From assembly GCA_965112155.1 (NCBI GenBank), contig OZ218100.1: a DNA stretch of 64,000 nucleotides, one strand, 5' to 3'. Under the pieces are notes generated by a model. That model saw only the letters and a list, made by a program, of their open reading frames with translations, was not told the origin of the DNA and did no database searches. The position numbers were made by a program, and so were the translations under genes. How positions within the stretch are numbered: position 1 is the stretch's first letter; each line of letters starts with the position of its first letter. Positions 24,503 to 35,867 of the stretch are shown here, in pieces. Origin of the DNA: Podarcis liolepis. Lineage: Eukaryota.

Positions 24503-24716
24503 AAGGCGTGTTCTCCTTCAAATGAGAGCACGTGTTGCGGTTGGGCGAATACAAGCCACCCTGCTGTTATCAGGCAGTTGAATGAGGTAGAACCCTTTAA
24601 AGGGTTAATTGAGTTACTGGGGAGTTTAGCATGTTGCCAATTAGGAAGGAAGGGCAGAGGCTATAAATACAGGTTACCCACGTTGGGGCGTCCTCTTGGC
24701 CTCTGCATCGGATCAC
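24503..24716 (+). repeat. Split direct repeat A1 (214 bp)
   Basis: Identical by eye to A2 at 30900-31113. Confidence 0.95.
24637..24700 (+). promoter_or_regulatory. Putative Pol II promoter in repeat A
   Basis: CCAAT 24637-24641, TATAAAT 24662-24668, pyrimidine-rich initiator-like CCTCTT about 30 nt downstream; duplicated in A2. Confidence 0.6.
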
Positions 24717-25608
24717 GGAGCAGATCGTCTGGAGCCTGGTTGTATTTGAGTATTTAAGAACTTTGCTTATCTGCTGCTGATTTCTTTGAGCCTTATAACC
24801 TTCTGTTCCTCCCCCTTTATTTATTTAATTTCCTTTCCACATTTTTTCCTCCCTCCTTCCGTTAATTCTCTCTTTTGGTTTAGTTTAATCTGAATTAGCA
24901 GCGGCTTTATTGGGAGCGGGAGTCCCCACCCCCCCCAGCCCGGGGGAGGCTTTCCTCCCGGCGTCGGGGAAGCGCCCGCGCTTTCGCCAGGCCGCGGCCC
25001 GCCCTCCCCCCGTCCTTAGCTCCGTAGCGCGGAGCGTCTCCGAGAGCCGCCCCCCCGCCCTCCTCGCGTCTCCCACACTTGGGCCTACCTGGAGCCGCGT
25101 CGGGCGGCTGGATTCGGGCCCACTTTTGCCGGAGGTCGTTGCCGCGTCGGCGGCGTCCCGTCCTCCGGTGCTGTGTCCTTGCGGCCGCGCGGCGGCGGCG
25201 AGGAGCGCGCTCCACCGGGGATTTCTTCAGCGGGCCCCTTTTGACCTAACAGGCCCACCCGCCTCGCGTTAGCGCGCGGGGGGGGGGCACATACAGGCCC
25301 GGTTCGCTAGCGCTGCGGCCTGGGCGCGCTCGCGGCCTGGTCGCAATTGCTAAGTCATTCCGGTTAGCTCCGCCATTTTAGGTAGCGTCTTGCCGACGGA
25401 GGCTCCCCCTGGTGGCTAGGATTGGTACTGCGCCTCAGTTGCTTTTCTTGAAGAGCTAGGCCGCACCCCCTACCCCTCGCCCCCTGCTGGTTGCTAGTAT
25501 ATTACGCTTTACTAATTGCTGTTTGGTAGTGATTGCTTTGCGTTTGGGCCTGCTGAGGCCTCCTGAGTTGGCAACAGTGCTCAGGACTGTTGTCCTGGCT
25601 TGGTTTGT

Positions 25609-25642
<34 letters not shown>
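25609..25642. repeat. (GATA)n microsatellite in the retrotransposon 5' leader
   Basis: Direct reading. Confidence 0.95.
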
Positions 25643-25820
25643 CTTCGATAGTCCGATACACCTGGCTGTTGCCTGGCCAAGAGACAGTCTTTATTCCGAG
25701 CTGCGGCCTAGATTTCACTCGAAGGCCCAACAGTGCTTTTTTGGTTGGAGGTTGCTAGCTTCATTTTGCCGTAGCGTTTGAATATTGACTTGGTTTTGAT
25801 TTTATTTCCTGCTAGCAGGT

Positions 25821-27347
25821 ATGGCTCCAAAGAAAGCTGCTGCGCGCTCCAGCTCTGTCATCGCGTCAAAGCGGCCTATTAGAGGTCCATCCCAAGCGCT
25901 TCGCTCTCCCCCCACCAACCAACCGGTGGGGCGAGTGCAATCGTTGGTAGCAGGCATGGCAGGTGACCCGGTGGCTCTATCTCGCTTCGCAGCTGACTTG
26001 GACCTTTTTCTGCAACATCGTTCTTCTCAACCATCAACATCTGGAGGGCTGCCCTCTTCAGCAGTGGTGCCGCCTCCGGCTTCATCGTCATCTAGCGAGG
26101 ATGAGGGAGAAGGACCGTCATCACAGGGTTTAATTAGGAACCCACAGTCATCCCAGTCTCCTGGCTTACCTGTAATACAGAACCGGCCTCGGAGGGCAGG
26201 CCGCCTGTCCAGGCGGGCCTCTGAAAAGAGTGCACCATTGGCTGTGTCCACTCGCCGGCGCACGCCTGCTCGGTCTCCACCGGTTGTGGCATCCGGGTCT
26301 GGTATCTCACATGTTGTCTCTATGCAGTCTGTTTCAGTTCCGTCCCAGCAGCATCCTGAATCGGAGTCCTCTGTCGAAGACAGTCTCCCGGTCCCCGCCA
26401 GGAAGTCCATGGGAGGGAAGCGTCGCCACAAGAGGGTGTCTCGAAAACGTGCAAAGCGCAGGAAGGACGACTCCTCTTCCTCTACTTCGGGTACGTCTTC
26501 CTCTAGCTCTGATGATGAGGGTACTCACTTGGAACTTTATTGGGGTTTTGGTGAATCGGCTTCAGGGCTTCCTAGGTGGGCTTGGGAACGCAGGTCCAAC
26601 GCTCATCGGGCAAAGTATGGGGCTGTTCAGGAATGCAGGGATGGTGTGTTGGTTCCCGACGTTAGAGTCTCAACCAATTCGGCCAGGGATATCATCCCAG
26701 GCTCACACTTGTCATCGAAATTGCGGTCCAGGATCTTAAATGGACGCTATGTAGACATTTTCAAATTGGCCCCGCCCTCTGAAGAGCAAGAAAAAGGAAG
26801 TGCTTCCACCAAAAAACGCTCAGGGGTTTCTGCGGCGGGTAGGTCCTTCGAACAGTGGCTCGACTGTTTTCAGGTCTTCGCCGGTATAGTCATGGCAGCT
26901 TATCCGCGTAGGTCCCTTCATTTGTTAGTTTATCTATCGATTGTGCGCTCTGCCTTTACCAAGGCGGGTGATAAAGCTGCAATTAAATACGATGAGAACT
27001 TTAGGCGCCGCGCGGCCAAGATCCCTTCTGCACGCTGGGATCGGAAAGATCTCGATGTGTGGACTACTTACGTCGCTCCGCTCATTGACAAAAAGGTACC
27101 GGAGCAGCAGAAACTGGGTGTCTCTACTTTTAGACCTGGCCGTCGATTGCCGTGTTGGGATTTTAACAGGACCTCATGTCAGCGTTCAACTTGTAGATTT
27201 GCGCACACCTGTGAGAAATGCAATGGATTGCATCCGGCTTCCTCTTGTTTTGGTGGACGGCGGCCCTTTCGTGGAGGAAAGGGGGGCTCCCAACAACCCC
27301 CCAAGTCAGTCCCCCCCACACCCTCAACCTCAGGAACAGCAAAATAA
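25821..27347 (+). CDS. gag: Ngaro Gag-like ORF1 (508 aa)
   Basis: S/P/R-rich N-terminus, basic cluster KRRHKRVSRKRAKRRK, core motifs RILNGRYVDIFKL / W..CF..F / KYDENFRR, C-terminal Cys/His finger CWDFNRTSCQRSTCRFAHTCEKCNGLHPASSC. Confidence 0.85.
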   Translation: MAPKKAAARSSSVIASKRPIRGPSQALRSPPTNQPVGRVQSLVAGMAGDPVALSRFAADLDLFLQHRSSQPSTSGGLPSSAVVPPPASSSSSEDEGEGPSSQGLIRNPQSSQSPGLPVIQNRPRRAGRLSRRASEKSAPLAVSTRRRTPARSPPVVASGSGISHVVSMQSVSVPSQQHPESESSVEDSLPVPARKSMGGKRRHKRVSRKRAKRRKDDSSSSTSGTSSSSSDDEGTHLELYWGFGESASGLPRWAWERRSNAHRAKYGAVQECRDGVLVPDVRVSTNSARDIIPGSHLSSKLRSRILNGRYVDIFKLAPPSEEQEKGSASTKKRSGVSAAGRSFEQWLDCFQVFAGIVMAAYPRRSLHLLVYLSIVRSAFTKAGDKAAIKYDENFRRRAAKIPSARWDRKDLDVWTTYVAPLIDKKVPEQQKLGVSTFRPGRRLPCWDFNRTSCQRSTCRFAHTCEKCNGLHPASSCFGGRRPFRGGKGGSQQPPKSVPPTPSTSGTAK

Positions 27348-28953
27348 GGTGCTGACTTCCTTGGCTCAGACTCCTATACGTCTGCCGGCCCTTAAAAAGT
27401 GGCTCAGGTTTTACCCAGATAGGGAGGCCGCTCGTTACCTGAGCGACGGTTTTTCTGTTGGTTTTCGGATTCCGGTAGCCAAGCCTCCCGTGGCTCGGAA
27501 TTCGTCTAATCAGAAATCAGTTCGTGAGTTGCCAGAAATTGCTCGAAGAAAGATCACAAAAGAGGTGGCTATGCACCGGATGGCTGGCCCCTTTTGTGCC
27601 CCTCCATTTCCTAAATTGCATGTTTCCCCACTGGGCATCGTGCCAAAGAAAGCCCCTGGTGAATTCCGTTTGATTCATAATTTATCACACCCTAGGGGTA
27701 CTTCAGTTAACGACGTGATTCCTCCAGAGCTTTGCTCAGTTAGGTATGCCTCTCTTGATCACGCGATCAAGATGATCCGGAAATTTGGACCAGCTGCGTT
27801 ATTGGCAAAATGCGACATAGAGTCGGCATTCCGTTTGCTGCCGATTCATCCGGAGGATTTCTGGCTGCTCGGTTTCCAGTTTGAGGGAAAATACTATTTT
27901 GACAAAGCCATGCCCATGGGCTGTTCTATAGCGTGCGCTGCTTTTGAATCTTTCAGTACCTTTTTGGAGTGGGCCCTCAAGCTGAAAACCGGGTTGGATG
28001 GGGTTACTCATTATTTGGATGATTTTTTATTGGCTTCTGATTGTAATACTGACAATTGCTCGGTTCTGTTGCAAGCTTTAGCGGCCCTTACTGAGGAATT
28101 GGGGGTCCCGTTAGCGGCAGAAAAGACTGAGGGTCCCTCGACTCAGCTCACGTATTTGGGTATCCTTTTGGATACGGTGTCTCAAACTTCTAGCTTGCCA
28201 AAGGTGAAGCTGGTGGCTTTGAAAAAGGTTATAGAGGAATTGCTTCCCTTAAAGAAAGTGTCCCTACTGCAGATCCAATCGCTGTTAGGTCACCTGAATT
28301 TTGCCTGTAGGGTGGTGGCCCCGGGCCGCCCCTTTTGCTCTCGTTTGGCTCGCCTCACGGTGGGCTTGAAGGCCCCGCATCATCGTGTTCGTCTTTCCAG
28401 GGAGGTGAGGGCTGATCTCAGCATATGGCTTGAGTTTTTGGAGGAATTCAATGGGGTATCGTTATGGCAAGACACTCTGAACTTGCAGAACGATTTTCAG
28501 GTGCACTCAGATGCTGCAGGGTCCCAGGGTTTCGGCCTATATTGGATGGGTAGGTGGTGTGCCAAGCGCTGGCCTCTTGACTGGCAGGGAACAGCCATTA
28601 CGCGGGACCTAACTTTTCTTGAGTTCTTTCCCATTGCAGTGGCAGTGCACTTGTGGGTCGAAGAGTTCAGGGACCGACGTGTCTGCTTCTGGACTGATAA
28701 CCAGGCGGTGGTGGACGTGCTGGCCAAGCTGTCGTCCCGCTCTCCTAGGGTGTCGGCCCTTTTGCGGGCTTTTGTTTTACATTGTTTACGTTATAATATA
28801 GTCTTTTCCGCTCGTTTTGTTCCGGGGGTGTCTAACGAAATTGCCGATGCTCTGTCCCGTTTTCAGATGGAGCGGTTCAGACTTCTGGTTCCAGAGGCTC
28901 GGAAACGTCCGGAATGTTTCCCGGAACATCTCTGGAGCCTTGGCAGGAGCTAG
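26941..28953 (+). CDS. pol: Reverse transcriptase-RNase H (ORF2); true start uncertain
   Basis: RT motifs FRLIHNLS, KCDIESAFR, MPMG, YLDD; RNase H SDAAG, LEFFPI, TDN, NEIADALSR; overlaps gag in the +1 frame. Confidence 0.95.
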   Translation: MCALPLPRRVIKLQLNTMRTLGAARPRSLLHAGIGKISMCGLLTSLRSLTKRYRSSRNWVSLLLDLAVDCRVGILTGPHVSVQLVDLRTPVRNAMDCIRLPLVLVDGGPFVEERGAPNNPPSQSPPHPQPQEQQNKVLTSLAQTPIRLPALKKWLRFYPDREAARYLSDGFSVGFRIPVAKPPVARNSSNQKSVRELPEIARRKITKEVAMHRMAGPFCAPPFPKLHVSPLGIVPKKAPGEFRLIHNLSHPRGTSVNDVIPPELCSVRYASLDHAIKMIRKFGPAALLAKCDIESAFRLLPIHPEDFWLLGFQFEGKYYFDKAMPMGCSIACAAFESFSTFLEWALKLKTGLDGVTHYLDDFLLASDCNTDNCSVLLQALAALTEELGVPLAAEKTEGPSTQLTYLGILLDTVSQTSSLPKVKLVALKKVIEELLPLKKVSLLQIQSLLGHLNFACRVVAPGRPFCSRLARLTVGLKAPHHRVRLSREVRADLSIWLEFLEEFNGVSLWQDTLNLQNDFQVHSDAAGSQGFGLYWMGRWCAKRWPLDWQGTAITRDLTFLEFFPIAVAVHLWVEEFRDRRVCFWTDNQAVVDVLAKLSSRSPRVSALLRAFVLHCLRYNIVFSARFVPGVSNEIADALSRFQMERFRLLVPEARKRPECFPEHLWSLGRS

Positions 28954-29837
28954 TTTTTCAGGGAGTAATGGCTTCTATTTCTCCTTCTACTCTCAGGTCA
29001 TACACTAAAGCATGGGCTGATTTTTTGTCCTTTACATATCAGTCAGCCGAGGAGCAAAGGGGGGCTTCCCCCTCTACTTCTCAGGTGCTAAGATATTTGG
29101 CGCACCTGTTTCAGTTAGGACGTGCAGCTAAGACGCTAAGAATTCAGGCAGCTGCCATTGCCTTTTTCTGCAAAGCTTATTTCGACAAAGATCCTTGCGC
29201 TAAATTTGCCGTGCGTAAGGCCCTTGAGGGATGGGGTAGGCTTTGTCCTTCCCAGCCAGCTACTAGGCACCCTATCTCATATGATTTGCTGTGCAAAATG
29301 CGCAAGGAGTTGAGGAAGGTTTGCTGGTCCAGGTATGAGGCTCGTCTTTTTTCTGCGGCCTTTTCTATTGCCTTCTTCGGAGCACTAAGGGTTGGTGAGC
29401 TCGTATGGGAGGAGCACAATAATGGCAGTTCTAGGGGATTATTGCTTCAGGATGCACAGCTATCTCCAGATGAGCTGAGGCTCCTCATTAGGAACTCAAA
29501 AACGGATCAGGACGGAAGGGGAGCCCTCATTCGTCTCCCGGCCACAAGGGAGGTGGGTCCGTGTCCGGTCAAAGATGTCAGGAGGTACTTGTCCATCCGG
29601 GCCCCGGGGGAAGGTCCACTGCTGCAGCACGAAGATGGGTCGCCTCTATCTAGGCGACAGTTTGCAAGGGTGATGCGGAAGGCCATTGCGGCTTGTGGTG
29701 ATTCTGCTAGTGATTTTGCCCCACATTCTTTCAGGATTGGGGCTGCCACGACGGCAGCGCATTGGGGCCTGTCTGCAGGCAGAATAAAGAATTTGGGTCG
29801 TTGGAAGTCGAATGCGTTTAGAGGCTATGTTCGCTAA
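28914..29837 (+). CDS. Tyrosine recombinase (phage-integrase family), 307 aa
   Basis: Catalytic set ALRVGEL (R), SKTDQ (K), HSFR (HxxR), GRW, terminal Y in FRGYVR. Confidence 0.95.
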   Translation: MFPGTSLEPWQELVFQGVMASISPSTLRSYTKAWADFLSFTYQSAEEQRGASPSTSQVLRYLAHLFQLGRAAKTLRIQAAAIAFFCKAYFDKDPCAKFAVRKALEGWGRLCPSQPATRHPISYDLLCKMRKELRKVCWSRYEARLFSAAFSIAFFGALRVGELVWEEHNNGSSRGLLLQDAQLSPDELRLLIRNSKTDQDGRGALIRLPATREVGPCPVKDVRRYLSIRAPGEGPLLQHEDGSPLSRRQFARVMRKAIAACGDSASDFAPHSFRIGAATTAAHWGLSAGRIKNLGRWKSNAFRGYVR

Positions 29838-29893
29838 CATGATGTTTTATATTTTGTTTCTCTATACCAGGTTTAGCAGCCGTACGCATATGG

Positions 29894-30445
29894 ATGGTGG
29901 GGCACAGTATCGTACATTGGGCCGGTGTTGGAGCCAGGCAGCTCAGATTGGGACCAGGTCTCGGCCTTCCTCCTCACGTGCGCGTATCTTGGCTGGCCAG
30001 AAGGGGAATGTCCTGGACTGAGTTTCTGCCACTGATTCGTAGGCAGCTAGCCGAGGAAGGGCCGCCCTCGGCCATTGTTGTGCAGTTGGGTGAGAACGAC
30101 CTGGTTTCTATGGACTGTGCTTCTTTACGTGCTGCTATCTTGGGTGATCTTGAAGTGCTGCGAGCAATGGTGCCGGCAACAAAAATTTTCTGGTCAAAAT
30201 TTTTGCAAAGGCGCAGTTGGAGAGGCAGTCGGTGCCCGACTGCCACCGAAAGGGCTAGGAAGCGGATCAATTCGGCAGTCTCAAAAAAGGTTTTTGAGTT
30301 GGGAGGTGACGTGATTTCTCATCCTGAGATTCTGGCTAGGGATGAATCTCTTTTCAGGGATGATGGGGTGCATCTTTCGGCTTTAGGGAATAAAGCGTGG
30401 CTGGGTGCTGTGGTGGCTAAGCTAAGGTCTTGGCTGGGTTCGTGA
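29894..30445 (+). CDS. SGNH/GDSL-family hydrolase (esterase) ORF; probably a spliced exon starting at 29871
   Basis: Blocks VGHS (Ser), RRG, QLGEND (Asn), DGVH (His). Confidence 0.88.
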   Translation: MVGHSIVHWAGVGARQLRLGPGLGLPPHVRVSWLARRGMSWTEFLPLIRRQLAEEGPPSAIVVQLGENDLVSMDCASLRAAILGDLEVLRAMVPATKIFWSKFLQRRSWRGSRCPTATERARKRINSAVSKKVFELGGDVISHPEILARDESLFRDDGVHLSALGNKAWLGAVVAKLRSWLGS

Positions 30446-30475
30446 GTGGTTTGGCGGCGAGCTTAAGGCTCCATA

Positions 30476-30901
30476 TGGCGGTTAGGCATTGGTTTAAAAT
30501 TGGTTGGGAGGGGTAAGTGCCTACCCCTCCAATGGTGGTGCGAAAAGGGAATTCCGTTAAAGGAATCCAGGGGCTTGCCATTCTTTCGTCCTTGTCCCCG
30601 GAGTCGGACCTGGGCCGTGCAAGCCCCACAGGAACATGAGGGTGAGAGGTGTGGGACTGTTACCCAGCCTCACCTTCTCACCCAATACTTGTTTCCCAAG
30701 CTGGCTTCCGCTGGAATCCGGAAGACCAGCCCTGTCCCTGGGCAAGGACAGATAGTCTTAACCAATGCCTAAGCAACCACTCACGTATTTGTATTTTAAT
30801 AAAGTTGTGGCCAAAAATCATGCCAAAAACCTTAAACAAAAATTAATGTGTGAAGTGTGAATTATTTTGGTGAGGGTGGCTTTGTGGGACTCAACACGCA
30901 A
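30476..30901 (+). repeat. Split direct repeat B1 (426 bp)
   Basis: Matches B2 (offset 811) with two substitutions seen: 30541 C / 31352 T and 30554 C / 31365 A. Confidence 0.95.
30798..30803 (+). terminator. Poly(A) signal in B1
   Basis: AATAAA followed by GT/T-rich downstream sequence. Confidence 0.6.
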
Positions 30902-31113
30902 GGCGTGTTCTCCTTCAAATGAGAGCACGTGTTGCGGTTGGGCGAATACAAGCCACCCTGCTGTTATCAGGCAGTTGAATGAGGTAGAACCCTTTAAAGG
31001 GTTAATTGAGTTACTGGGGAGTTTAGCATGTTGCCAATTAGGAAGGAAGGGCAGAGGCTATAAATACAGGTTACCCACGTTGGGGCGTCCTCTTGGCCTC
31101 TGCATCGGATCAC
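30900..31113 (+). repeat. Split direct repeat A2
   Basis: Identical to A1; contains CCAAT 31034-31038 and TATAAAT 31059-31065. Confidence 0.95.
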
Positions 31114-31286
31114 CCGCCCACCCTCCCTTTTAAAGGGGGGGTTTCTTGGTTATTGACCTTGCTATGCCTGTCATGGGGTCGTTCGCCTTGGTGCGGGGGC
31201 CTGGTAGGAATTTACCATTTGGCTGATTGGCTGGTGCCATTTGGGTTTCGCCTACTACGTAGCAAATAAGTCACAACTTGTAAGGT
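31114..31286 (+). ncRNA. Unique A2-B2 spacer; candidate structured RNA element
   Basis: Nested complementary segments, e.g. TTGCTATG/CGTAGCAA and TGGTAGG/CCTACTA; no meaningful ORF. Confidence 0.45.
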
Positions 31287-31712
31287 TGGCGGTTAGGCAT
31301 TGGTTTAAAATTGGTTGGGAGGGGTAAGTGCCTACCCCTCCAATGGTGGTGTGAAAAGGGAATTACGTTAAAGGAATCCAGGGGCTTGCCATTCTTTCGT
31401 CCTTGTCCCCGGAGTCGGACCTGGGCCGTGCAAGCCCCACAGGAACATGAGGGTGAGAGGTGTGGGACTGTTACCCAGCCTCACCTTCTCACCCAATACT
31501 TGTTTCCCAAGCTGGCTTCCGCTGGAATCCGGAAGACCAGCCCTGTCCCTGGGCAAGGACAGATAGTCTTAACCAATGCCTAAGCAACCACTCACGTATT
31601 TGTATTTTAATAAAGTTGTGGCCAAAAATCATGCCAAAAACCTTAAACAAAAATTAATGTGTGAAGTGTGAATTATTTTGGTGAGGGTGGCTTTGTGGGA
31701 CTCAACACGCAA
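31287..31712 (+). repeat. Split direct repeat B2 (element 3' end)
   Basis: Copy of B1; ends ...CAACACGCAA; AATAAA at 31609-31614. Confidence 0.95.
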
Positions 31713-33291: not shown

Positions 33292-33443
33292 ACCAAACCC
33301 TGGTCGGAGCCTTGTGCTCATGAATGGGCTTATAAATGGTCAAAGCATGGTCTGGCATTGTACTTGAACCAAACCCTGGTCGGAGCCTTGTGCTCATGAA
33401 TGGGCTTATAAATGGTCAAAGCATGGTCTGGCATTGTACTTGA
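33292..33443. repeat. Perfect 76-bp tandem duplication
   Basis: ACCAAACCCTGGTCGGAG...GTACTTGA occurs twice, followed by the microhomology ACAAACCC. Confidence 0.95.
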
Positions 33444-34010
33444 ACAAACCCATTGTGTCTACATTCCTCTTATTTTGTTTATTTTTGCTAAAAGTAGCCA
33501 CTCACACCCGTGGTGTATCACATTTCTATTGTTCATTAATCCATTGCTATAGTATATTTTAATACATTCTTTTTATTGTTTATTTCCAAAACAACTACGC
33601 TTCTCACATAGTTTGATTTTACGTGCATGATAGTTGATAGATAAATAGATAGATAGATAGATGAAGCATAGATTGCAAAGTAGATTGGAAACATGCCATG
33701 AGGGAAGGGGTTCTTAACCCTTTGTGCCCACTTGAGTCTTGGTCAGAATTCCCCCACCCCTATGGTTGTTGTTCACAATGAAATGAAGTCTCTCTTTGTT
33801 CTATGGGAGGTTTTTTTCTATTCTAAAGAGCCGGGAGGGGAATTCTGATTAGGACAATGACAAGAACAAAAAGTTACAGCCCTCTTCCCTTGCATCAGGA
33901 TCCCAATTTATGTGAGCTATTTAAAAAGAAAAAAAGAAATATTTCATGCAAGACCAAGTCACATGACAAATATCATGTCTAGTTAAGTCCTGAAACACAT
34001 TAGTTCTTAC

Positions 34011-34764
34011 CTGCAAACATTGGGGGGCATATACATTCATAGGACTCTGCATCAAGTTCTCCTTTCACTCCCTTTCTAACGCAGGAGGCGTTGTTGTAGC
34101 AGGGCTTACTGGAGCACACATCAAATTCTTGGCAGAATTGTCCCGAATACAACTGGTTACAGTGGCAATTGTAGGCTTCCTCCCAGATGTGACTTAAACA
34201 TATGCCCCGTCCAGAGCAAAAGGGTGCACTTCGAGACTGCTGGCAAAGATGTGGTTTCACTGTCACATTCAGCCTCAGCCCTAAATTACATAAAGGTGGC
34301 CCTCGGCTCGGGACTTCAGTGAAATAATGCGTTCCAACTCCAAGCCATTGCGGGTCGATCTGATGCATCCCACTTAACCTGCAACCAAAAATCATCTGCA
34401 GCTGAGGGATATCAGTTTGTTGAGGACACCTGATGAATTCCTCCCGGGAAACATTTGCCAAGTTCATGCCATGCGACTGAAAAGAGGGCTCGGAGGAAAC
34501 AAATAGTGCATCTCCCAACTGAAGCTGTAGAGGACAAAGCTGGGGATGACTCAAAGCTGAATGTTCTAGAGCATTCACATCGGTATTCCAGCAATCGGCG
34601 TAGAAGTTGGAACAGATGTTTTGGGTCAGGGACCACTTCACAATATGTACTGTCGGCTGCAGTTTCCATTCTGAAGTTGAAGACCTTTTGCAGGCAGTCT
34701 GCCCGTCAACAATGCAACCTTGAAAGACATGAACCATCACAACAATGATTGACTTTAGTTTCAT
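34011..34764 (-). CDS. EYS: EYS (protein eyes shut homolog) first coding exon: signal peptide, N-terminal domain and two EGF-like repeats
   Basis: Translation aligns with the human EYS N-terminus (W.LT.NIC..FY.DCW, CPLQ.QLGD.L..SSEPS, FGCRL.GMH, GTHYF, LGLRLNVTVK, FCSG.G.CLS..W, FSG/YSG..CQE.D.CS.KPC.NN); ends at the phase-1 donor G|GTAAGA. Confidence 0.96.
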
Positions 34765-35867
34765 TGTTCATTAGGAGAAAAGATGGGCGCACCTCATTAC
34801 AACTGTGCTTCTTGAAGACAGGAGTGATCCTTTCAATTGCTGCACGGTTGGAGCCCTTTCATTTACGTTCCACTGCCATCTGTGAAATGATAAAGATATG
34901 CATGCATGAACAATGTGATATCTTTGGATAAAATATTGGCACTGAGACCACAGTGCTAAGATCAAACAACATCATCAACAAAGCAGGGAAGAGTATGCCC
35001 AGTTGTTCAGACTCCCTTCCACCTGCACAGCTATTACATACAACAAAATATAAGCATCAGCAAGAAAACTCGGACAGCAACAGAAACATCCAGTGGCAAC
35101 CAAGCTAAAGCAGTCTCAAAAGCTCCTCTGAAATGCCATGCTTCCATTTCCCTGTAGAAGACAAGAAGAAATGCAATGAGAGTGCTTTCAACTGTGCTCT
35201 CGACTTGCCTCTGTTGAAGATGAGACATGGCACAAGGCTTTCCCCAGTAATTACAGTTTGAATGCATGCAGTTTACTCTAGACCCAAATAGTTTAGGCCA
35301 TTTAAAGGTTAAAGCCACAATTTTCAATTGGAGAGATAGTATGATATTGGTGTTTTTCAAATTTCAGTGGCACCCTGTGCGAGGCCAAATTTTGGCACCC
35401 TCCACCTCTCACCTTCCGTTCTACTCAATTCACTACATCATAGTTGCAACACCCTGCAGCACCTCCTAGGCTCAGTGCCCAGTGCGGCAGAACCAGGCGC
35501 TTTGCCCTAAACCCACCTCTGCATGTGATCATTAATGCAGGCTCCCACAAGCAACCTAGTTAATGAATTCTGTACCAACTGATGGTTCAAGAGGCAACTT
35601 CAAAGGCAGTCCCACACAGAGCATGTAAACATGATTTAAGCTGGGTGTAACCAAGATGTGTGCAAGTTGTAGTAAGACCTGCCTTCTAAATAAAAAAATA
35701 ATCCATATAAGGCAGTTTTCTAGTCTCATAATATTAAGATCTTCTCTGTCTCTAGATAGGAAGAAATGATGGAGTTGGATATCAAATGTGTATTGGTGAA
35801 ACCAGACACCAAATCTGTTGGCCTCAGAGATAAACATACCCACCTAGTATGTTGTCAGAACTAGCCC

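Follow-up and report, generated by a model that had tools for sequence, protein, structure and literature searches.

The SGNH esterase of an intact Ngaro-type tyrosine-recombinase (YR) retrotransposon in the lizard Podarcis liolepis is probably made by splicing onto the N-terminal part of Gag (Gag-N), with the basic cluster of Gag included. This fusion, the core of the original prediction, is supported at the sequence level by the phase of the acceptor across relatives, by intron-less copies and by gene models.

Structure of the element and of its esterase

The element covers 7210 bp (24503-31712, plus strand) of the window, that is, of the whole 64-kb stretch of DNA analysed, within which no further copy was found. 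Its split direct repeats, all on the plus strand, follow the order A1...B1-A2-spacer-B2, a feature of Ngaro elements. A1 (24503..24716) carries a TATAAA at 24662, the probable promoter, and B1 (30476..30901) an AATAAA at 30798, a candidate end of the spliced mRNA; A2 (30900..31113) is separated by 173 nt of unique sequence (31114-31286) from B2 (31287..31712), which has an AATAAA at 31609. A1 and A2 are 100% identical over 214 nt, B1 and B2 differ at 2 of 426 nt, and the element is young in the lizard genome. Elsewhere in the window lie a perfect tandem duplication of 76 bp (33292-33443) and, on the minus strand, a long host exon with EGF-like domains (34000-34767). This exon resembles the first coding exon of EYS, in which case the element would lie downstream of it and antisense to the host gene.

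Four open frames, all on the plus strand, are uninterrupted: gag (25821..27347, 508 aa), RT/RNase H (26929..28953), the tyrosine recombinase (28836..29837) and the SGNH hydrolase (29843..30445). Pfam matches identify the reverse transcriptase (RVT_1, E 1.8e-13), the recombinase (Phage_integrase) and the hydrolase (Lipase_GDSL_2, E 1e-5). Gag was identified by its position, by a weak match to a C-terminal CCCH-type finger (Pfam E 0.086) and by homology to the first ORF of other YR elements, while the region that we take to be RNase H, which has no Pfam match of its own, was named from its end motif. The RT frame is +1 relative to gag and has no nearby ATG (26929-27370), and no consistent acceptor was found ahead of RT in six elements. 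The 5' leader (24690..25820, plus strand, 1.13 kb) lacks any ATG where 9.8 would be expected, in keeping with scanning as far as the gag ATG, from which all Gag-N products begin. It holds a GC-rich stretch and a (GATA)n run, and ends two bases before the gag ATG at CAG|GTATGG (25818/9), which scores both as an acceptor and as a strong phase-1 donor. A Pfam scan of the four ORFs (E up to 0.1) gave no methyltransferase domain. We used the definition of Ngaro given in the available text of PMC9210276, namely absence of a methyltransferase and an SGNH hydrolase ORF after YR, and the ORFs and repeats of the element show the layout given there for hydrolase-bearing Ngaro.

The esterase exon (29871..30445, plus strand) encodes 191 aa, counting the split Gly at its start. 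SGNH blocks I, II, III and V (Ser, Gly, Asn, Asp-x-x-His) are all present on an SGNH fold, as S13, G46, N76, D165 and H168, and a catalytic role is predicted from these motifs. Block I reads GHS rather than GDS, and G46, N76, D165 and H168 are invariant in 14 sequences. The AlphaFold model (pLDDT 94) matches SGNH hydrolases, and the best PDB sequence match is the esterase of ZfL2-1 ORF1p (4C1B, E 1.8e-5). In the model, beta-strand 1 spans residues 5-11 counted from the split Gly and the first Met is residue 9. A start at ATG 29894 lies inside this strand and would thus remove more than half of the strand leading to the catalytic Ser13. It had been proposed that the whole strand lies upstream of the only ATG; this ATG indeed cannot give the full strand, but it falls inside the strand, not after it, and is the first in-frame ATG rather than the only one. 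An in-frame TGA (29840-29842) closes any longer unspliced esterase frame, as predicted. The esterase in this element is without a usable start of its own.

Splice signals and lacertid gene models

Splice sites were scored with simple matrices of consensus frequencies, not with MaxEntScan. The esterase acceptor (29843..29870, plus strand) consists of a polypyrimidine tract and a CAG, with the junction CAG|G at 29870/29871. The tract, with 16 T in 25 nt and 20% GC, is as unusual for the element as had been claimed: in the coding region, only 6 of 4600 windows of 25 nt, located at two places, match its composition. The acceptor ranks third among the 451 AGs of the element; weaker in-phase AGs nearby would give exon starts at 29877 and 29880. 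A branch-point-like GCTAAC (29833..29838, plus strand) overlaps the YR stop TAA (29835-29837) and occurs once on the plus strand of the element. It is not conserved, however: only 4 of 14 loci have YTRAY 15-45 nt before the AG, close to the background of 0.13-0.31 per window, and the motif therefore contributes little to the case.

Two gag donors on the plus strand had been proposed, and both are phase 1 counted from the gag ATG at 25821. CGG|GTACGT (26488..26496, junction 26490/1) ranks sixth and CAG|GTGACC (25960..25968, junction 25962/3) 11th among the 311 GTs of the element. We joined 30 phase-1 gag GTs in silico to 29871 and compared the products with nine models of 412-414 aa. By mean score, 26490 ranked first and 25962 29th; the junction of the latter was found in 0 of 49 homologues, and this candidate was rejected. 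We infer that 26490 would be the main donor in this copy. The proposed first coding exon (25821..26490, plus strand) holds Gag residues 1-223 plus one base and ends just after the basic cluster (Gag 195-217; 26403..26471, plus strand; 13 K/R in 23 aa), a candidate RNA-binding or nuclear-localisation motif. The putative intron (26491..29870, plus strand, 3380 nt) would contain the C-terminal half of Gag, RT/RNase H and YR. On recheck, the positions originally assigned to GCTAAC, the TGA, CAG|G, ATG 29894 and both donors were all correct. Of four contig sets compared with 24503-30895, the one guessed to be RNA gave 19 contigs, with zero depth over the donor and acceptor bins; 26490->29871 is not among the 15 joints listed of 87, a result that speaks neither for nor against splicing.

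The closest proteins to the element come from lacertid lizards and are up to 84% identical. In 19 of the 49 homologues, the Gag part ends at about residue 223, directly behind the basic cluster, and the esterase follows from the same split Gly. These 19 models, which are automated and can be ab initio, span Podarcis muralis, P. lilfordi, P. raffonei, Lacerta agilis and Zootoca vivipara, and the basic cluster is kept in their alignment. Joining 26490 to 29871 gives a product of 414 aa, and 16 of 20 compared models are gap-free for 20 residues on each side of the junction. The conservation of the donor is seen at the protein level only, in a Ser-rich stretch. The remaining 30 homologues comprise one with a later gag donor, two with other low-complexity N-termini, seven YR-derived, nine with a Met in or before the tract, five host-gene fusions and six partial or other models.

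The seven YR-derived models indicate that the predictor will attach other phase-1 donors. They also raise the possibility of a real acceptor used mainly with a donor in YR or elsewhere, the product then being a YR-fragment/esterase or another chimaera. Several of the seven are joined at the same KTDQRG position, and strong, phase-compatible GTs exist in RT and YR (e.g. 28404, 29394). The YR part of such an mRNA would still require a start, whereas the gag donor is used by 19 models and the intron-less copies described below carry a promoter-proximal Arg-rich exon and no YR sequence. We consider this arrangement unlikely.

A wider profile search retrieved 3277 relatives (E up to 0.001), and among the best 150 of them the esterase is usually C-terminal to a low-complexity segment. 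The 20 of these 150 looked up by name, whose N-termini may derive from gag, come from squamates, a newt, a caecilian, frogs, teleosts and Mytilus. A segment of 13 aa immediately ahead of the esterase distinguishes Mytilus isoforms X1 and X2, and it is also at the esterase entry point that caecilian isoforms diverge; as a rule, annotation pipelines list isoforms only with transcript support.

A second phase-1 acceptor, TTTTCAG|A (28847..28867, plus strand), lies inside the RNase H end motif and is in frame for YR. The motif occurs in five of eight sequences tested, with an AG at the same place in all five and a CAG in four. Relative to the YR frame, this AG falls in phase 1 in the window (28867) and in L002 and L028; of the other two sequences, L001 is without YR and L022 is broken. 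In the models P0046 and P0063, a basic Ser-rich N-terminus passes into YR at the residue equivalent to 28867. This acceptor probably serves the recombinase through a Gag-N/YR splice, but it is constrained by RNase H coding, which makes it a weaker case than the esterase acceptor. In L001 (805-3068), gag, RT/RH and the esterase are present with no YR between them, as a deletion derivative or a YR-less form.

Acceptor phase and intron-less copies among relatives

Relatives were taken from 27 loci on metagenome contigs, many with YR or RT upstream, of which 20 entered the scoring at SGNH block I. In six others the match does not include block I (L019, L020, L021, L023, L025 and L027), and L024 was omitted as probably bacterial (GC 0.61, 24% identity, neither YR nor RT; best AG -0.5, phase 2). 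Two loci (L004 and L006) were scored although no YR or RT is in view, the latter resembling a fish host-gene form. A search of viral contigs yielded 20 pattern matches and no relatives. Four loci came from genome contigs, L028 being the only YR element among them. The contig of this locus (L028:1-5049), a YR retrotransposon of eukaryotic type, was assigned to a bacterial MAG and is probably host contamination.

Within 60 nt of block I, the highest-scoring AG is phase 1 in the window and in all 17 non-fused loci, and L028 provides an additional phase-1 acceptor outside these 17. The offsets of the phase-1 AG from block I vary (-2, -8, -11, -17, -35, -38); in L018, the best AG is at -56 with a score of 0.5, an unconvincing acceptor. 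In control windows inside coding frames, the best AG was phase 1 in 75 of 188. The YR- or RT-linked loci form 12 groups by identity, for which 0.4^12 gives about 2e-5 by hand, a value that overstates the case because the 12 groups share ancestry. A fixed phase with a moving offset appears to us the stronger point. The AT-rich spacer between the YR stop and the AG ranges from 12 to 254 nt in 14 loci, and the esterase is read in frame 0 to YR in two, +1 in five and +2 in seven of them. Between L007 and L012, which are 98% identical, the spacer differs by one base and the frames differ. Only 8 of 18 loci have an in-frame Met ahead of block I, scattered from -2 to -29, and in-frame stops lie 5-25 codons upstream of the esterase in most loci. 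A fixed phase combined with a varying spacer, frame and Met is the behaviour of an intron end and would not be expected of a start region, signal peptide or recoding site. Conservation of phase in other hydrolase-bearing elements, as originally envisaged for both splice sites, was recovered for the acceptor in 17 of 17 loci and for the donor at the protein level only.

These observations also bear on a stand-alone esterase ORF, either unspliced or preceded by a non-coding leader spliced from 25818, that would start at an upstream hydrophobic Met or at ATG 29894. A Met with a hydrophobic run precedes the esterase in 9 of the 49 homologues, and 25818 would be a suitable donor by its score. In this element, however, TGA 29840 closes the frame and ATG 29894 cuts the first strand; among relatives, the Met is absent in 10 of 18 loci and spacer length and frame vary freely. 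The hydrophobic run itself would be what a T-rich tract yields on translation, and P, S or L stands before the Gly in nine of nine cases, as the NYA codons of a YAG|G acceptor would encode. Such an independent ORF is, in our view, improbable.

Splicing onto Gag-N is further suggested by short copies, from two families of invertebrate type, that lack the putative intron. In L014 and L017, identity to the YR-linked loci L008, L009 and L011 (91-97%) starts exactly at the G of the acceptor AG. Tract, YR and RT are all missing upstream of this point, where a TATA-like box is followed instead by an Arg-rich open frame that begins MPGRG and runs into the esterase in phase 1. They share their 3' end with L011 and then diverge from each other, with no poly(A). 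The same relation holds between L026 and the full-length L022, which are 95-96% identical from the AG onward, although in L026 exon 1 and the esterase are in different frames. In both families, the homology at the joint amounts to 1 nt of shared sequence only. The assignment of exon 1 to gag rests on the MxGRG start that it has in common with the full-length gag of a second element in L007, which begins MPGRG and has a phase-1 donor, CTG|GTAGGC, after 48 codons. No unspliced source of the exon 1 of L014 or L026 was found among the fetched loci, so the donor GT is unseen for both families, and the contigs that hold the four fused or partner families all belong to a single name series and could be DNA or RNA. 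The simplest reading would be that the machinery of the element itself reverse-transcribed spliced RNA and inserted the copies. A GACGTCA-like core, possibly a recombination core, occurs near both ends of L014 (763-771 and 2356-2364) and L026 (near 1400 and 3385).

It might still be argued that no functional splicing takes place, the AG being a by-product of an AT-rich spacer, the models predictor artefacts and the short copies DNA deletions. The models can indeed be ab initio, and AGs scoring above 29871 exist inside YR (29085 and 28997). Yet phase 1 recurs in 18 of 18 cases at six or more offsets, and two families are joined exactly at the AG with a single shared nucleotide, and we regard an absence of functional splicing as highly improbable. 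Barely credible is a C-terminal extension of YR by read-through or frameshift: the esterase ORF begins 5 nt past the YR stop and a few models (P0046, P0047 and P0050) run YR straight into the esterase, but all three relative frames occur, even between 98%-identical copies, across spacers of up to 254 nt and with in-frame stops upstream in most loci.

Proposed product, captured exons and comparison with known systems

Under the Gag-N/esterase splice model, transcription would start from the A1 promoter, and unspliced RNA would yield Gag and also serve as the template for copying. The host would splice a share of this RNA from 26490 to 29871, removing the C-terminal half of Gag, RT/RNase H and YR. 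Read from the gag ATG, the spliced mRNA would encode a 414-aa protein made of a helix pair, a disordered linker, an Arg/Lys cluster and the SGNH esterase. The linker of Gag-N is Ser/Pro-rich and disordered, and in the model of P0023, a 76%-identical homologue, helices at 35-45 and 50-68 (pLDDT 59-89) are followed by disorder at 70-224 and then by the SGNH domain. Gag-N could bring the esterase into the RNP of the element, the helix pair binding full-length Gag and the basic cluster binding RNA, and the targets of the esterase could be membranes or acyl groups, as has been suggested for ZfL2-1 ORF1p. By analogy with that protein, Gag-N quite possibly holds the esterase at the RNP for a step that involves membranes or lipids. 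The gag-region donor may also reach YR through 28867, and one Gag-N tag may thus head several products.

Related esterases are also found at the ends of host gene models. P0040-P0044, from Zootoca vivipara and Podarcis muralis, are long zinc-finger/RS-repeat models, one of them ZNF638-like, that end in a Ngaro esterase at the same Gly. A His-to-Asn change in block V is common to P0040, P0042 and P0043, which represent both species, and likewise to P0041, which suggests that the captured exon is old and catalytically dead; the copy at the end of P0044 is a different one and retains the His. Cold-shock-domain (CSDE1-like) proteins, three of them named as teleost, carry a related esterase (P0146, P0164, P0169, P0174 and P0057), with the His intact in four. 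L006:585-1129, with its phase-1 acceptor, looks like the matching cold-shock-protein esterase exon, and the cold-shock/esterase protein is a candidate domesticated fish gene. P0135, P0198, P0225 and P0053 are host models with an appended esterase (PRPF39 in Bombina, an isoform named SPRY4 in Rhinatrema and CIR in Mytilus) together with a gecko protein with six esterase repeats.

A phase-1 exon offers a simple route by which esterase domains could reach the ends of many host gene models. We tentatively propose that hydrolase-bearing Ngaro elements, from invertebrate hosts to lizards, might use a retrovirus-like alternative splicing that joins a basic Gag-N exon, in phase 1, to the esterase or to YR, that the spliced esterase RNA can be copied as a short non-autonomous element, and that the phase-1 exon was repeatedly captured by host genes (lacertid Matrin/ZNF638-like, teleost cold-shock-domain). 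If true, vertebrate RNA-binding proteins would have gained SGNH domains from Ngaro elements time and again. YR elements described with overlapping ORFs may also be mis-modelled. By naming an actual 414-aa protein, the splice model makes the function of the Ngaro hydrolase testable.

In retroviruses, env is expressed by leader splicing, which yields a membrane glycoprotein; here, Gag-N would be an in-frame tag on an enzyme. The env-like strategy of the original prediction therefore fits only loosely, as the supported product starts with Gag-N, adopts a soluble SGNH fold in models and shows no evident signal peptide or membrane anchor. Host splicing also sets protein output in the case of Ty1/Copia shGAG, but the Copia product is Gag alone (PMC5580714). 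Bdelloid LTR retrotransposons and Athena encode a GDSL esterase as ORF3, and LTR ORF3s are typically expressed from spliced messages; this extra SGNH ORF likewise occupies the 3' (env) position, although these elements belong to a different retroelement order and no Gag-N fusion is described in the available text (PMC5408684).

The Ngaro hydrolase ORF was already known, with its function unproven (PMC9210276, PMC7192593, PMC6681497). Xenopus DIRS-53_XT and DIRS-54_XT share with our element the A1...B1-A2-B2 repeats, gag, RT/RH, YR and a fourth SGNH ORF after YR, but the available text of PMC9210276 treats the hydrolase as a separate overlapping ORF, whereas here it would be a 3' exon fused to Gag-N. 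Neither 'splic' nor 'intron' occurs in the main text of PMC9210276, the splicing passages available from PMC7192593 concern a reporter intron, and the available text of PMC9341512 holds nothing relevant to hydrolase splicing. In full-text searches of the openly available literature, we found no description of splicing of the Ngaro esterase. Splicing as a retroelement strategy was already known (PMC5408684, PMC5580714).

A further likeness is to the esterase-bearing ORF1p of CR1/L2/RTEX elements, which has the same order of N-terminal helices, Arg-rich motif and C-terminal SGNH domain (ZfL2-1, PMC3905857, PDB 4C1B). In ZfL2-1, the helices self-associate as a dimerising coiled coil, and the active esterase binds liposomes, though not oligo(A), according to the available text of PMC3905857. 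The differences are clear: ZfL2-1 is a target-primed element with a single ORF1, whereas here splicing would cross pol and YR; its coiled coil has five heptads, in place of a short helix pair with about 150 disordered residues; and here full-length Gag exists alongside the esterase fusion, unlike in ZfL2-1. Our element is a YR retrotransposon with the esterase as its last ORF, not its first, and the protein is not a member of the CR1/L2 ORF1p family. The resemblance that had been predicted holds for layout, including the Arg-rich motif, and by analogy for function, in that the product would work like CR1/L2 ORF1p. A YR retrotransposon would thus have arrived at the helical/Arg-rich/esterase layout along a different path, which lends weight to the view that retrotransposition includes a common step in which RNP-tethered esterases act.
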